From Dehalococcoidia bacterium (GTDB taxonomy: Bacteria; Chloroflexota; Dehalococcoidia; UBA2979): a DNA stretch of 64,000 nt. Made by a program: the position numbers and the translations under genes. Under the pieces are notes generated by a model that did not search any database, had not been told where the DNA came from, and saw only the letters and a program-made list of their open reading frames with translations. Within the stretch, counting starts at the first letter, position 1; the number at the start of each line of letters is the position of its first letter. Shown piece after piece: positions 17,661 through 24,208 of this stretch. The DNA is taken from contig OZ253555.1 of NCBI GenBank assembly GCA_965262725.1, forward strand, positions 1,504,001-1,568,000, given 5' to 3'.

Positions 17661-18772
17661 CGGGGGGAGTTTGTCGGATGCCGCCGAGGGAGGAACGCAC
17701 ACCCAGTGTCCTAGCCGGCGCTGCATATTCGACGCTCGGTAACGACGAAGACGGAGTCGCGGTTGTTCTTGAGCAACTGGTGCAGGAGGTCGGGTAGTGC
17801 ATAGGGGACGGGCGTCGGAGGTCACCAGTTCCACGTAACGCTGCGGTCAATCGCTGAGTACGCTGGGAGCTTGCCGAGAAGTCGGGGGCGGGTCACTTGT
17901 CTAAGCTCGAATCCAGAGCGCCAGGCTAACTGGCGAGTAGGCAGGAGGTGGAAGTCCTCTATGGCAAAGAGCTAGCCACTCATGTCATTCCGCGAGCCGT
18001 GCGCGGGTCGTCGCGAGGCGGCTTGTGAAGCGTCGGCAGCGGGGTGTGCGGGCGGGGCTAATGAGCATCGAAAGGGCCATTTGGGGTGCCGAGGCTCTTG
18101 GATTGGTCGAAGGCAATACCGGCGACGGCGCTACTGGCGAGTCGTGGTCGGGCCCCACGGTGTCGAAGACCCCATGCACGCACACACGTCTATCGCCGGG
18201 ACTTGGGAGAGCTGCGCGTTGTCCCGACGAGTCGTACGCCGGGACCGCGTCGGGAAGGGACGTAAACCGTAGCCGATGATGAACGATGCGCAGCAGTCTG
18301 ATGGGGCCGTACGAGCGATGAAGGCGGCGAACAAGGGGGCGCGAGCCCCGGCGGAGTCGCTGGAGCAAAGGGCCCCAACCGAGAGGAATCCTCAAAGCAC
18401 CGGCACGGTCCGGACGCAGAGTCGGGGTGCGGTGTCACCCGGAGCGGAGAGGATACGGCAGTTCGTGGAACGGAAGCCGGGAGAGAAACTCACCGCGCTC
18501 TTGCACCACATCACGCCGGAGGCGCTGCGGGAGGCGTATCTCGCGTTGAAGCGGGATGCGGCTCCGGGCGTGGACGGGGTGAGGTGGCGAGAATACGGGG
18601 ACGGGCTGGACGAGCGATTGCTCGACCTGCATGGCCGCGTACACCGTGGAGCGTACCGGGCGAAGCCCGTCAGGCGGGTAGAGATACCCAAGCCGGACGG
18701 GGGAATACGGCCGCTCGGTATCGTCTCGCTGGAGGACAAGATCGTTCAGCGGGCGGTGGTGGACAATCTTTT

Positions 18773-20100
18773 GGGCACTTCGAAGAATGACTATATCGTC
18801 GGCATGGTGAATGATATACTGTAGCCATCAGTGTCATGGTTACGGGGGATGATATGGGCCAACTTGGGTTCTTCAATGTGGACGACCGCTACGACGCTCT
18901 CGACGCCAAGGGCGACCCACTCGCCAAGCTCGACCAAATCATCCCGTGGGAGCAGTTCAGACCTCAGTTAGAAGCCGTCTGGGCCACGCCCGAAGAAGAG
19001 CGTAAATCACCGGCCGGACGCAAGCCATGGGACGCAATCGTCATCTTCAAGGGATTGATACTCGGCGTACTCTACAACCTCTCCGATGAACAGATTGAGT
19101 ATCAGATCCGCGACCGTCTCTCCTTCTCCCGCTTCTGCGGCACAGGCATCGAAGGCCGGGTGCCCGACGCCACCACCTTCTGGCTCTACCGCGAGCAGTT
19201 GACCAGGGCGGGCGCCATCGCCGAGTTGTTCCAGGCCTTCGACCACTATCTCGCCAGCCAGGGCTACCGCGCCAGTGGCGGACAGATCGTCGACGCCTCG
19301 ATCGTCTCGGTGCCGATCCAGCGCAACAGCCGCCGGGAGAACGAGTCGCTCAAGCAGGACCTCATTCCCTCGGAGTGGGTCTTCAATCCGGCGAAGCTGG
19401 CCCAGAAAGACCTCGACGCCCGCTGGACGAAGAAGCACGGGAAGAGTCACTACGGCTACAAGAACCACATCACCATCGATCGGCGCCACAAGCTGGTGCG
19501 TTCCTACGCCGTCACCGATGCCGCGGTCCATGACAGCCAGGTGATCGACCAGCTGCTCGACTCTCCGAACACGTCACCCGATGTGTGGGCAGACCGTGCC
19601 TATCGGTCGCGGGCGATTGAGGCAATGCTCACGGAGAAAGGTCTGACGAGCCGCATCCATCGGAAGGCCGCTGCCAACCGGCCGTTGACGGCGGCTGAGG
19701 AGGCGGTCAACCGGGGATGGTCGCAAGTACGGGCCCGGGTTGAGCACATCTTCGGCTCGCAGACGAACGAGATGGGCGGCACGCACATCCGTACGATCGG
19801 CGTGCGGCGGGCAGTGACGCAGATCGGCTTCAAGAACCTGGCGTACAATATTCGCCGTCTGGCGCACCTCGAACACCGCCGTACGGCTGCCGCGGCCTAG
19901 CTTGCCGCCACCCGTCCACAGACCTCACACCAGCCTCTAGTTCGGTGCTTTGACAGTCCCGTTTAACTGTCAATTATCCCGCTTCACCTATGCTCTCGCG
20001 GACTCACCCACACCCCCTGGGGTCTCCTCAGCTACGCCCTCTGCCCCCTCGTGCCCTCACCGATACCTTCATCAACAATCGCGAGTTCTTCGAGGTGCCC
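18773..20100 (+). mobile_element. IS5-family element, apparently intact
   Basis: Inverted repeats GGGCACTTCGAAGAA / TTCTTCGAGGTGCCC; 4-bp TTTT target duplication. Confidence 0.92.
18854..19900 (+). CDS. IS5 transposase
   Basis: LSDEQIEYQIRDRLSF, IVDASIV, YGYKNH, WADRAY, RARVEHIF. Confidence 0.92.
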   Translation: MGQLGFFNVDDRYDALDAKGDPLAKLDQIIPWEQFRPQLEAVWATPEEERKSPAGRKPWDAIVIFKGLILGVLYNLSDEQIEYQIRDRLSFSRFCGTGIEGRVPDATTFWLYREQLTRAGAIAELFQAFDHYLASQGYRASGGQIVDASIVSVPIQRNSRRENESLKQDLIPSEWVFNPAKLAQKDLDARWTKKHGKSHYGYKNHITIDRRHKLVRSYAVTDAAVHDSQVIDQLLDSPNTSPDVWADRAYRSRAIEAMLTEKGLTSRIHRKAAANRPLTAAEEAVNRGWSQVRARVEHIFGSQTNEMGGTHIRTIGVRRAVTQIGFKNLAYNIRRLAHLEHRRTAAAA

Positions 20101-20129
20101 TTTTGAACCCGATTTACGAGTCGGGCTAC

Positions 20130-20991
20130 GTGCGTCCGGAAGTCGAAGGGGTGGTGACGTGATGACGTGACCGGTCCGGAGACATGCTCGTTGCTGCCAG
20201 CCGGTGAGAGTCCGGCACGGGTAACTGTCAGGAGGCCCGTTAGCAGGTCGGCGGCGTGGACGGGAAACGGTCTGCGTCGAAGCCCGACGTCAAGAGCCCT
20301 ATGAGGGGGAGCAAACGTGCGGTCCGCAGCATGACGCGAAGTCTGCCGCGCCGTGAGACTCGCCTGTCTATTGACAGGACCAAGGAGGAGCCGAGCCCGG
20401 GTGGTCAGGGCGAAGGCCATGGACGAGGTGAAGATCCTGGAATGCAGCCTCAAGAAACCTCCCGGCGTATGGGACGTGGAACGTACGGAAGGTAGCGACG
20501 GGAACCGGAGAAGCCCTCCCCGGCCCGGCACCCTGTGAGAGGGCGTCGGAGCGAGGCGTCCTATAACCGGTCAGAGCCGGGAAGTGGACAGCCAGCCGGA
20601 AGGGTGGCGGAGGGGGTCGTAGTACCGCTGGAGCCGGACGGACAACATAACCGCCGGTGATGGGAAGGACCCCTACTTTGTCCGTGCATGTTGCTGGGGG
20701 TGTGGACTGGTGAGTGCCCCTCGGGGCTAGCAACCACTTGGTAGGGTTCGAGGCTCTCCGCACATGCTGTACCGGCTGGCCAAGGCACGACCCACGTTGT
20801 GGGGAGCGCTGCATGCCATCTGGTGAAGGGCATCGGTGAGCCGGATGAGGGAGAACCTCACGTCCGGTTCGATGTGGCAGGGGCTGGAGACGGACGCTGC
20901 TATGGCCGTGGAGTTGGGCACCACCGGGAAACCGGCTTGGAACTGATGCGCCACCGCCTACGGCTCGCACCGCGCCAGCCCCTGACCCTAC
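20130..20991 (+). mobile_element. ORF-less group II intron nested in the outer RT gene
   Basis: 5' GTGCG; domain V GAGCCGGATGAGGGAGAACCTCACGTCCGGTTC (about 20839-20871); 3' CCCTAC; EBS2 pairs 6/6 and EBS1 5/6 with the flanking exon. Confidence 0.88.
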
Positions 20992-22238
20992 TACGGCTTC
21001 TCGCATGGCTTCAGGCCGGGGCGTTCGGCGCATGACGCGCTGGACGCACTGGCCTACGCGGTCGAACGGCGCAAGGTCAGCTGGATTGTCGAGGTGGACA
21101 TCCGGGAGTTCTTCGGCAGCATCGACCGGGGGCGGCTGATGTCGTTTCTGGAGATGCGCATCGGGGACCAGCGGGTGTTGCGCCTGATACGAAAGTGGCT
21201 GAGCGTCGGCGTCATGGACGCGGAGCCGGAAGTCGATTTCGTGCGGGGGATGCCGCAGGGGGCGCCGATATCGCCGCTGCTTGCGAACGTGTACCTGCAC
21301 AACGTGCTCGACGACTGGTTTGCGCGCGAGTGGCGACCGCGGGAGGTCCGGGGCGAGGCGTACATCGTGCGGTATGCCGATGACTTCGTCCTGGGGTTCC
21401 AGCACCGCAGCGATGCGGTGCGGTTCATGGAGGCACTCCGGGAGCGGTTCGCGGCCTACGGGCTGGAGCTGCACCCGGAGAAGACCCGTCTACTTGAGTT
21501 CGGCAGGTTCGCGCTGGCGAACAGGCGGAAGCGCGGGGAGGGCCGACCGGAAACGTTCGACTTTCTCGGCATGACGCACTACTGCCGGACCCGACGCGAC
21601 GGGAGATTCGGGCTGGGGCGCAAGCCCGTTGCGAAGCGGATGCGCCGGACGCTGAAGGCCATCAAGGCCGAGTTGTGGCGGCGCATGCACGACAACCCCG
21701 TGACGACGGGGCAGTGGCTGGGGCGGGTACTGCGTGGGTGGCTTGGCTACTACGCGGTGCCGACCAGCTCGCCGGCGCTCACGCGGTTTGTCCGTTTCGT
21801 GAAGCGGCTCTGGCTGCGCGTTCTCCGACGGCGGTCGCAGCGCGACCGTTTCACGTGGGAGCGCATCCTTGCCCTGTGCCAGGGACACTGGCCCCGAATC
21901 TCCATCCTTCACCCGTGGCCTGCGGAGCGATTTGCCGTCACGCACTTGAGGTAGGAGCCGGATGCCCGAGAGGGCACGTCCGGATCTGTGCGGGGGGTGC
22001 CGGGCAACCGGCATCCCTACCGCGAACCGAACGAAGCTTGACGAGGCGGGGTGCCGGGCTGCCGGAGAGTTCGACGGGTGTGTCGGCGTTCGCCGGGCGG
22101 CGCCGGGGGCGGGCCGGAGCCAAGAGTCGTCGCTCAGCGCCGCTCGGGGGCGCTGAGGGTGCGGGCGCGAGGGTGCGCGAGGCGTGCGCGGGCATGCTGG
22201 CGCGAGCTTCGGCTCCGGGTCGGCGCTGTGAGCGGGCG

Positions 22239-22581
22239 TCAGGCCGGAAGCGGTATCGCCCGTAGTCGCGCGAGCGCGGCTGCCAGCTGCCCGGCCCAGG
22301 GCCAGCGCTTCGGGAGGTGCAGGGTCCACCGCCGGGCAGAGTGGGTGAGCCGTCCGGCGAGAGAGAAGTAGCGTCGCCTGAGCGTCCTGGTCGTCACGAT
22401 CCCCTCGCCGAGCCCGAGGCGTGCCATCCAGCGGGCGAGGTTGTGCGCGATCACCTGCACCGCGAGCCACGCCGCGTTCGCGGCGAAGCGGCCCGAGGGG
22501 AGATGGTTCAACCCGACGCCGTACTTGAGGTCGCGGATCGCGTTCTCGATCTCGGCGTGACGGCGATGGTCGTGTTCCGAT
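22239..22581 (-). pseudogene. IS1380 transposase C-terminal fragment
   Basis: HRRHAEIENAIRDLKYG..LNHLPSGRFAANAAWL...LHLP..WPW. Confidence 0.85.
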
Positions 22582-24208
22582 TGTCGTTGAGCAGCGATTC
22601 CGTCAGTAGTTAACGGAGCAGCGAATCTGTCAGTCCCCAGCCAGCGAGCAGGGGGTGACAGTGCAACAGTTCGAAGAGGCACGACGCTACGTACTCGACC
22701 GGGTGATCGCCGGAGATCTGCAGGTCTCGCAGGCCGCCGAGATCCTGAGCATCAGCGAGCGGCACGGGTGGCGGCTCCTCGCCGCCTACCGTGCGCGGGG
22801 AGCCGCGGCGCTCGCCCACGGCAACCGCCGGCGCCGGCCGCACAACGCCGTCCCGGCCGATGTCGCCTCGGCCGTGGTGCGCCTGGCCACCACCCGCTAC
22901 CCGGGAGCGAACCACACCCACCTCGCCGAGCTGCTGTGGGAGCACGAGGGCCTGGACGTGAGCAGTTGGACCGTCCGCCGGATCCTGGCGCGGGCCAGCA
23001 TCCCGAGTCCCCGCCGCCGCCGGCCGCCCGAGCACCGCGTCCGGCGTGAGCGGATGCCCCGCGAGGGGATGCTGCTCCAGGTCGATGGCAGCCATCACGC
23101 CTGGCTCGAGGGACGAGGCCCGCGCTTCGCCCTGCTGCTCGCCGTCGACGATGCGACCGGCGCAGCCGTGCACGCGCTCTTCCGCCCCACCGAGGACGCG
23201 CGCGGCTACTTCCTCCTGCTGGAGGAGGTCGTCCGCGGCTGCGGCATCCCGCTCGCCCTCTACAGTGACCGCCACGGCGTCTTCAAGGCCTCCCCCGACG
23301 GACGGCGCGGACTGAAGGTGTCCACCCAGTTCGCACGGGCGATGCGTGAACTGGGGATCACCCAGATCTTCGCGCGATCACCGCAGGCGAAGGGGCGCGT
23401 GGAACGTGCCGCAGGTACGTTCCAGGACCGGCTGGTGACCGAACTGCGCCACGCTTCCGCCTCCACCATCCCCGAGGCACACGCCGTACTCGAGCGCTTC
23501 CTGCCGCGCTTCAACGCCCGCTTCCGGATCCCGGCAGCGCAGCCCGTGGTGGCCTACCGCCCGCTCGATCCCGCGCTCCCCCTCGCGTCCATCCTGAGCT
23601 TCCGGCACCCCCGCACCGTCGCGCGCGACAACACCGTCAAGTACCACTGGCGCACGCTGCAGCTGCTGCCCGGGCCCGAGCGGAGAAGCTACGCCGGGAC
23701 GCAGGTCGAGGTGGTGGAGCGGCCGGCCGGCGAGCTCTCCGTCCAGCACCAGGGGGAGACGATCCCCTCACGCCCGGCACCGCCGCGCGCGGGCGTGCTG
23801 AGAGCGGTTCGCTCCGAGCTGACCCAGAACCCCGACCACGAGCGCATCGCCTCAGGGCTCGGCTCCGGCGGCGCGCTCCGGCGGCTGCCTGCACTCCTGG
23901 CTGCTGCGGCGGTGGATGCGACGCGCAACGGCGCTGCGGTCAGGTCGGAGACCAGCGGCAAGCAGCTCCGGGCTCCGACTCCTCGGCAGCTCGCCCGCTG
24001 GAAGGCGATCCAGCAGGCGCAGCTGCAGGGACTGTCCATGCGGGCGACCGCCAGGCTGCTCGGGATCTCCCGCGACACCGTCAGCAGCTACGTCCGCGCC
24101 AACGGCGTCCCTGGACGCCGGAACGGTGCCGCGGCATCCTCCGACGACCAGGGCGGTACTGACGGAGTCGCTGCTCCGTTGCACTGACGGAATCGCTGCT
24201 CGTCGACA
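22582..24208 (+). mobile_element. ISNCY / IS1202-like element
   Basis: TGT...ACA ends, each with two GAGCAGCGA-T/A-TCCGTCAGT-type repeats; no target duplication. Confidence 0.85.
22655..24187 (+). CDS. ISNCY (IS481-like DDE) transposase with an extra C-terminal HTH
   Basis: LQVDGSHH, VDDATG, YSDRHGVF, SPQAKGRVER, TFQDRL. Confidence 0.9.
   Translation: MTVQQFEEARRYVLDRVIAGDLQVSQAAEILSISERHGWRLLAAYRARGAAALAHGNRRRRPHNAVPADVASAVVRLATTRYPGANHTHLAELLWEHEGLDVSSWTVRRILARASIPSPRRRRPPEHRVRRERMPREGMLLQVDGSHHAWLEGRGPRFALLLAVDDATGAAVHALFRPTEDARGYFLLLEEVVRGCGIPLALYSDRHGVFKASPDGRRGLKVSTQFARAMRELGITQIFARSPQAKGRVERAAGTFQDRLVTELRHASASTIPEAHAVLERFLPRFNARFRIPAAQPVVAYRPLDPALPLASILSFRHPRTVARDNTVKYHWRTLQLLPGPERRSYAGTQVEVVERPAGELSVQHQGETIPSRPAPPRAGVLRAVRSELTQNPDHERIASGLGSGGALRRLPALLAAAAVDATRNGAAVRSETSGKQLRAPTPRQLARWKAIQQAQLQGLSMRATARLLGISRDTVSSYVRANGVPGRRNGAAASSDDQGGTDGVAAPLH

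Follow-up and report, generated by a model that had tools for sequence, protein, structure and literature searches.

The homing of a group II intron into both inverted repeats of an insertion sequence (IS) has a precedent in RmInt2 of Sinorhizobium meliloti GR4, which resides in the inverted repeats of ISRm17; its authors argue that targets are thereby doubled and that one of them is guaranteed to lie on the lagging strand (PMC4615759; here and below, statements from cited papers refer to parts of those papers). RmInt2 tolerates weak pairing between exon-binding site 2 (EBS2) and intron-binding site 2 (IBS2), and it shows a bias for the lagging-strand template (PMC4615759). Groups IIE and IIF comprise small bacterial ribozymes of 450-700 nt without the open reading frame (ORF), which carry EBS1 and EBS2 in domain Id and whose EBS2 is thought to matter more for homing than for splicing (PMC3753933). 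The ends of group II introns follow the consensus GUGYG...AY, and the consulted parts of two reviews mention shifted splice sites without giving a GA start (PMC4424553; PMC4028801). Here, we describe a group II intron with the ends GAGCG...AA that is inserted in the terminal repeat of an IS1380-family element, in a stretch of 64,000 nucleotides from a Dehalococcoidia bacterium of the Chloroflexota (NCBI GenBank assembly GCA_965262725.1, contig OZ253555.1, positions 1,504,001 to 1,568,000 of the forward strand). This whole stretch is referred to as the window, and the intron occupies positions 17916-22026 of it.

It is highly probable that this intron represents an active family of endonuclease-less introns encoding a reverse transcriptase (RT), which retrohomes into the ATCCA^CCGA core of IS1380-family repeats (the caret marks the insertion point), 10 bp from the tip of the element, and that GAGCG...AA are the true ends of its RNA. 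In the same genome, 14 5' junctions of 98.5-100% identity all read GAGCG and all follow C[CT]C[TG][GA]ATCCA, each with a different outer flank; 12 of the 14 have a 3' end within 6 kb, and two are truncated. Seven of the 12 complete copies are exactly 1917 nt long, with an intact RT frame in 7/7, while the remaining five are longer and contain nested insertions (3471 nt in three cases, 3249 nt in one and 4111 nt in the window copy); full copies differ by at most six bases. Together with the GAGCG start, which is inherited across diverged lineages in other genomes, these junctions and frames suggest a functional variant, as had been proposed in an initial annotation of the sequence.

The 14 occupied sites compare with 24 empty IS-like sites (...ATCCA^CCGA...) in the same genome. 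The pattern used for empty sites gave 27 matches, of which those at 1761704, 2034841 and 3240538 were left out, as no IS-like sequence comes after them. Three further empty ends, at 315088, 3357969 and 664874, belong to related IS types; they lie outside the pattern and are not counted among the 24. Empty sites elsewhere in the genome read ...CTCGAATCCA^CCGAACGAAGCTTGACGAGG..., which is the sequence of the joined exons of the window, so that the joined exons indeed correspond to an IS1380-type end, as the initial annotation held.

In the window, positions 17901-17915 read CTAAGCTCGAATCCA and are followed by GAGCG at 17916-17920; the plus strand of 17901-17935 is thus ...CTAAG CTCGAATCCA^GAGCGCCAGGCUAACUGGCG... 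At the 3' junction (22015-22039), ...CCCUACCGCGAA^CCGAACGAAGCUU..., the intron ends with CCGCGAA at 22026 and CCGAA follows. All elements that had been described, including the intron in an IS1380 terminal repeat and its ends, were found in place, and the features of the locus are as follows.

17901..17905: target-site duplication or flank of the IS, CTAAG, 5 bp; its last G (17905) is exon position -11 and pairs with EBS2.
17906..17915, minus strand: the 10 nt at the tip of the IS1380-family element's right inverted repeat (CTCGAATCCA on the plus strand), forming the 5' exon, which contains IBS1 (17910-17915) and, at 17906-17908, part of IBS2.
17916..22026, plus strand: outer group II intron, 5' GAGCG ... 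GCGAA 3', with a length of 4111 nt as against 1917 nt in intact copies.
17951..18172, plus strand: domain I core, matched by RF02005 (group-II-D1D4-6) with 170 bits, the gathering score being 49.
18073..18077, plus strand: EBS2 (AGGGC) in an 11-nt internal loop that varies with the target.
18099..18104, plus strand: EBS1 (UGGAUU; DNA TGGATT) in a hairpin loop, pairing 6/6 with AAUCCA/GAUCCA and covarying with the 5' exon across lineages.
18165, plus strand: EBS3 (G), pairing with C22027, with which the 3' exon begins; 19/20 introns have this pair, in four types.
18276..18773, plus strand: N-terminal part of the RT/maturase frame, the rest of which lies at 20100-20129 and 20992-21951, as aligned to the intact copy.
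18299..18301, plus strand: stretch that links domain II to domain III (J2/3), UGA, with U18299 as gamma; gamma-gamma' pairs in 20/20 introns, and a covarying helix lies directly 3'.
18302..18376, plus strand: domain III, with compensatory changes in its closing stem.
18774..20099, plus strand: IS5-family insertion sequence interrupting the RT gene, with the transposase ORF at 18836-19900; ends accurate to a few bases.
20130..20991, plus strand: inner ORF-less group II intron (GUGCG...AC) in the RT gene, RF02003 at 102.8 bits; junctions by alignment.
21955..21986, plus strand: domain V (DV), with AGC triad and AC bulge; an A faces the triad G, where other introns have U.
21988..22026, plus strand: domain VI, with gamma' as its terminal A22026 and, 8 nt from the end, a bulged A at 22019.
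22027..22572, minus strand: rest of the IS1380-family copy, comprising the inner right repeat and the last transposase codons (22239-22572), cut off at ~22573 by another element.

An Rfam scan of the window thus returned, apart from RF02005 at 17951-18172, a second and different group II match, RF02003 at 20198-20334. When the window copy is aligned to an uninterrupted 1917-nt sister copy, intron positions 1-858 correspond to 17916-18773, positions 853-882 to 20100-20129 and positions 879-1917 to 20988-22026, and the ribozyme parts of the two differ at four positions only. The IS5-family transposase (354 aa) scores 271 bits on NF033581 (cut-off 140), and the inner intron is 862 nt long. Because both elements sit in its RT gene, the window copy is unable to make RT; it is a dead twintron. 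Contigs from four sequencing runs over 17700-22300 consist of short pieces only and show no empty allele at this locus. The joints 18767>20100 and 20125>20988 are present in three of these runs and reflect intact copies; the first of them means that copies without the IS5-family element exist.

The host element belongs to the IS1380 family, since its transposase scores 228 bits on NF033539 (cut-off 180) and also matches PF13701. Elements of this family encode a DDE transposase, are typically ~1.65 kb long, have terminal repeats that are short and generate duplications of 4-5 bp. The complete unit in this genome measures 1659 bp with an open frame of 453 codons, and six complete copies are flanked by the 5-bp duplications CCAAG, CTTAT, CTAAG, CGTAG, CTAAT and TGTAT. 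The DNA that follows the intron (22027-22572) occurs ~15 times in the genome at 96-100% identity. The left tip, upstream of the transposase, reads CCCTGATCCACCGAAGAAG and the right tip CTCGAATCCACCGAACGAAG, with ATCCACCGAA as common core. As the transposase tail lies on the minus strand, the window intron interrupts the right repeat at a distance of 10 bp from the tip; it runs antisense to the transposase gene, and therefore it is not spliceable from the mRNA of that gene. With 1.9 kb inserted amid the repeat core, the transposase should no longer recognise that IS end, and the IS would lose its mobility. The element that truncates the IS1380-family copy (22573-24200) carries an ORF of 510 aa (22655-24187). 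Elsewhere in the genome (G000:C1:1949794-1950186), an intron copy is cut at position 387, just after J2/3, by another IS1380-family tip; the IS1380-family element therefore also lands in the intron.

From the DNA alone, the boundaries are ambiguous by 1 nt (A^GAGCG...GCGA^A), since the 5' exon and the intron both end in A. A relative in the same genome (734423-736345, GUGCG...GCGAA) is inserted in domain V of an ORF-less intron copy, and its empty site is present in the inner intron of the window, GGATGAGGG^AGAACC, to which no shifted boundary fits. The ambiguity is resolved by the unambiguous ends of this GUGCG relative and by the covariation of EBS1 and EBS3/IBS3. EBS3, at intron position 250, pairs with the first 3'-exon base as G-C, A-U, U-A or C-G, with L048 as the exception; this supports the true 3' boundary, as a shifted boundary would remove the covariation. 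The counts of 19/20 for EBS3 and 20/20 for gamma-gamma' include near-identical copies and represent about ten independent lineages. EBS1 pairs with IBS1 at 5-6 of 6 positions in most lineages, and the 6/6 pairing of TGGATT with AATCCA noted initially stands. The EBS1/IBS1 pairs are:

Window family: UGGAUU / AAUCCA
L044 and L048: UGGUAU / AUGCCA (L044), GUACCA (L048)
L059: CACCAC / GUGGUG
1951737, same genome as the window: CCCAUU / AAUGGG
L034: CUCGCA / UGCGGG
L042: CAGCGA / UCGCUG
L066: UACCAC / GUGGUA
L069: AUACGC / GCGUAU

The EBS2 loop likewise covaries with the target, with 5-bp complements at -11 to -14 in seven lineages. In the window family, AGGGC pairs over 5 bp with GCCCU of the left repeat (-11 to -7) and over 4 bp with GCUC of the right one. 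Exon position -11 falls outside the IS, on the final base of its duplication, so IBS2 reaches one base into the target-site duplication, which is a new detail compared with the published precedent. Another candidate for EBS2, GGGGCUAA at intron positions 139-146, was rejected, as this motif is conserved whatever the target, whereas the variable loop AGGGC fits and covaries. A delta-delta' pairing beside EBS1 does not fit, as judged by eye.

At the 3' end, the deviation from the consensus has a structural counterpart. J2/3 consists of gamma followed by a conserved GA (PMC6224600), and the base before this GA pairs with the last intron base in all introns compared: U-A in the window clade, U.G in L052 and L053 (ending GAG), A-U in L069 and L071, and G with a terminal C in L065. 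More distant relatives carry the mirror of the window pair (AGA...U). The terminal A is thus part of a flipped gamma-gamma' pair with gamma = U, in agreement with the initial annotation, which had placed J2/3 at TGA 18299-18301; this lies directly before a helix with the compensatory changes UGGGGC/GCCCCA, CGCGGG/CCGCG, CCCGGG/CCGGG, UAGAGG/CCUCUA and CCGUUU/GAACGG. The RT frame is open at 18273-18480, from before J2/3 through domain III, and in distant relatives compensatory RNA changes and peptide conservation occur together in this stretch. Domains V and VI contain the AGC triad, the AC bulge and the bulged A 8 nt from the end, and the domain V tetraloop is GAGA. An A stands opposite the DV triad G throughout the clade (GAU; GAA in L066), in members with U at position 2 (U2) as well, whatever their 5' end.

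At the 5' end, the family departs from GUGYG by the A at position 2 (A2), while G1 and the penultimate A are kept unchanged; GUGYG...AY describes a consensus, which the mechanism does not strictly demand. Among RF02005-type introns of Chloroflexota, A2 is found in 17 sequences as against nine with U2, in the forms GAGCG, GAACR, GAUCG and GAAAG and in several genera. Among 61 related genomes, five carry RF02005 matches; for the phylum, the figure is 13 of 151. Of 17 published loci in the phylum sample, 14 start with GA (GAACA, GAACG, GAUCG, GAAAG), two with GU and one is unclear; these 5' ends were placed by the conserved hairpin downstream, with an EBS1 check for L042, L066 and L109, and that of L108 (G205) is not fixable by EBS1. 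The unpublished genomes G201 and G097, which also gave RF02005 matches, enter none of the counts. Position 3 is G in 9/9 U2 sequences and G in six, A in ten and U in one of the A2 sequences. One related intron, L071, is a 647-nt ORF-less derivative (GUGCG...GCGCU) that keeps domains I-III, V and VI.

The initial annotation had further spoken of compensated boundary changes. That the two unusual ends compensate each other, A2 and the terminal A interacting directly, we regard as unlikely. In this sample, A2 does occur only with gamma U or G and never with A, and the three introns with gamma = A (L069, L070, L071) are all U2, which speaks for such a pair. However, U2 is combined with the same UGA...AA in a multicopy lineage (734423 of the same genome, L034, L035), which the RT tree places, with 100/99 support, in between A2 lineages (11 rows, leaving out L067 as mis-trimmed and L048 and L051 as near-duplicates). 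A2 also occurs with a terminal G (L052, L053), and the known boundary partners differ, since the last base pairs with gamma and the penultimate base with G1 (PMC3669008). No column of domains I-III follows position 2 among 26 aligned sequences (17 A2 and nine U2; best score 0.43); intron column 218, which splits A2 from U2 among close relatives, was rejected as a partner, as the U2 introns L069 and L071 carry A there. The GUGCG relatives share the AA terminus, so that the 3' end offers no compensation for A2, which is instead an inherited lineage trait and calls for no change of a 3'-end partner.

The unusual start is normal for a whole intron branch, which is apparently undescribed: full-text searches, with papers judged mostly by title, brought up none that describes a GA start or names IS1380 elements as targets of group II introns, with the class-specific boundary consensus of PMC4028801 unread and a prior record possible. 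We lean, if only slightly, towards the wider reading that a large Chloroflexota lineage of RF02005-type introns has a functional 5' consensus G-A-N-(C/A)-R instead of GUGYG, accompanied by the DV G.A opposite the triad G and by the flipped gamma-gamma' pair. If this is true, U2 is dispensable in this catalytic core and position 3 is free once position 2 is A, and the supposedly universal 5' GU rule, group II and spliceosome-like, is partly relaxed in nature. The A2 lineage with its position-3 variants provides a natural test set for the role of the 5' GU, which by homology bears on spliceosomal catalysis. Furthermore, boundary finders based on GUGYG and AY will misplace the ends of these introns, and some introns may have been missed altogether.

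The inverted repeats of the IS1380 family appear to be the regular homing site of the outer intron family. Left-type tips are occupied at 9/17 and right-type tips at 3/18 (p 0.035), and the intron is also found in the ends of a related IS (81% identity) and in one further IS-like end. With both inverted repeats and the ends of at least two related IS1380-type elements in use, the idea of the initial annotation that IS ends serve as multicopy homing sites is supported. A more distant RF02005-type intron, L086 (G100:C113), has the canonical start GUGUG and follows ...CTTAGCCGGGATCCAC, an IS1380-like tip that is entered one base further in; its 3' side lies off the contig.

Passive spread, in which an intron-bearing IS was transposed as a unit and the IS end is no homing site, is very improbable. 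It would account for the location of all copies in IS ends and for the 10-nt tip kept outside the intron, but not for the occupation of either the left or the right repeat, of the related IS and of the further IS-like end. Nor would passive carriage be expected to enrich occupied sites for the flank base that pairs with EBS2, whereas 13/14 occupied sites have G at exon position -11, as against 12/24 of the empty ones (p 0.012). The same intron type is found at the same insertion position in two other genomes (L017/L039; L043), and a split repeat is an unlikely substrate for the transposase.

Retrohoming into these repeats, which we prefer to passive spread, would involve the intron-encoded protein. 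The RT of an intact sister copy scores 326.4 bits on TIGR04416 (cut-off 300) and 126 bits on PF00078, and its nearest solved relatives are RTs of the IIC type (7uim, 1.7e-45; 6ar1, 3.8e-42). The 494-aa protein has no endonuclease domain: Pfam returns RVT_1 only, the TIGR04416 match ends at residue 455, and the RT domain and the maturase region leave no space for one. A metagenome scan with the RT alignment yielded 10 loci only, the chosen patterns being N-terminal. By analogy with endonuclease-less introns, the intron would be transcribed and would splice with the help of the RT. The intron RNA would then reverse-splice into the IS repeat, the target being read by EBS1 at -6 to -1, by EBS2 at -11 to -7 and by EBS3 (G) at the C of +1, and cDNA synthesis would be primed at the replication fork. 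What the data show are the lineage distribution, the copy numbers and empty sites, the pairings and the boundaries; activity in splicing and retrohoming as well as fork priming are inferred. GC skew rises between ~0.4 and 1.7 Mb, stays flat up to ~2.57 Mb and falls thereafter; outside the flat zone, 6/6 copies are co-oriented with fork movement (p 0.03), and eight copies lie where the terminus cannot be placed. As IBS2 reaches into the target-site duplication, the chance of an IS copy to be colonised would depend on where that IS landed, and the spread of the intron would thus be tied to the target choice of the IS.

The related introns nest in each other's RNA and ORF parts. Domain V of the inner ORF-less intron (~20846-20879) is a site, here still empty, to which a third intron type homes; this is the GUGCG relative of the outer intron, which is inserted at that very spot in the same genome (G000:C1:734423-736345) and in G008 (L034, L035, L041). 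L039/L058 (G008:C1:2448994-2450811) is chimeric. On its 5' side, intron and exon are both of the IS-end type; on its 3' side, both correspond to the GUGCG type that sits in domain V of the ORF-less intron. This combination points to recombination between intron copies. L043 has an IS-tip 5' exon and the 3' exon of another intron family.

Several points weigh against an active family with these ends. The window copy itself is broken, and some L036-type copies show poor EBS1 pairing (4/6). Domain V has G.A where nearly all group II introns have G.U, and RF00029 (domains V-VI) reaches 39.9 bits with the intact sister copy (E 7.5e-6), just short of its gathering score of 40; it is from proliferation and conservation alone that we infer catalytic competence. 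The tests of -11 G and of end preference are based on few, partly dependent sites, and the flat-skew zone holds both orientations, including two adjacent opposite copies near 2.47 Mb. Decay, with GAGCG...AA as mutations in dead copies of a family that no longer splices, is scarcely credible all the same: it would fit the departure from GUGYG...AY, the G.A mismatch, the RF00029 score and the broken window copy, but no fewer than seven RT lineages, with identities as low as 67%, share these ends; they retain intact ORFs and several near-identical copies per genome, and gamma-gamma', EBS1 and EBS3 still covary with the ends.

Among the known classes, group IIC (O. iheyensis, GsI-IIC, E. rectale) provides the nearest solved RTs and shares with the window family a small ribozyme. 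A short hairpin directly after the 5' pentanucleotide of the window family may also be compared with the class C consensus (PMC4028801). Unlike group IIC, however, the window family has a covarying EBS2, an EBS1 of 6 bp and a defined IS sequence instead of a terminator hairpin as target; the absence of EBS2 and the insertion after terminator-like hairpins by which group IIC is recognised do not apply to it. The 5-nt DV loop of groups IIE and IIF, compared here by its published description (PMC3753933), is not seen in the window family, which has the GAGA tetraloop.

Among IS-associated introns, RmInt1 has canonical boundaries and its target lies inside the IS, whereas that of the window family lies in the terminal repeat. 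RmInt1 (class D), in ISRm2011-2, is also site-specific and endonuclease-less and also uses a multicopy IS as homing site (PMC4615759; PMC3753933). RmInt2 has a comparable target: like the window family, it is endonuclease-less, all its copies lie in IS inverted repeats and each IS offers two sites on opposite strands (PMC4615759). The window family differs from RmInt2 in its IS1380 host, in the ends GAGCG...AA and in an IBS2 that reaches into the target-site duplication. Homing into IS repeats has therefore been documented already, and what the window family adds is another example, in which the ends of IS1380 elements are hit repeatedly.

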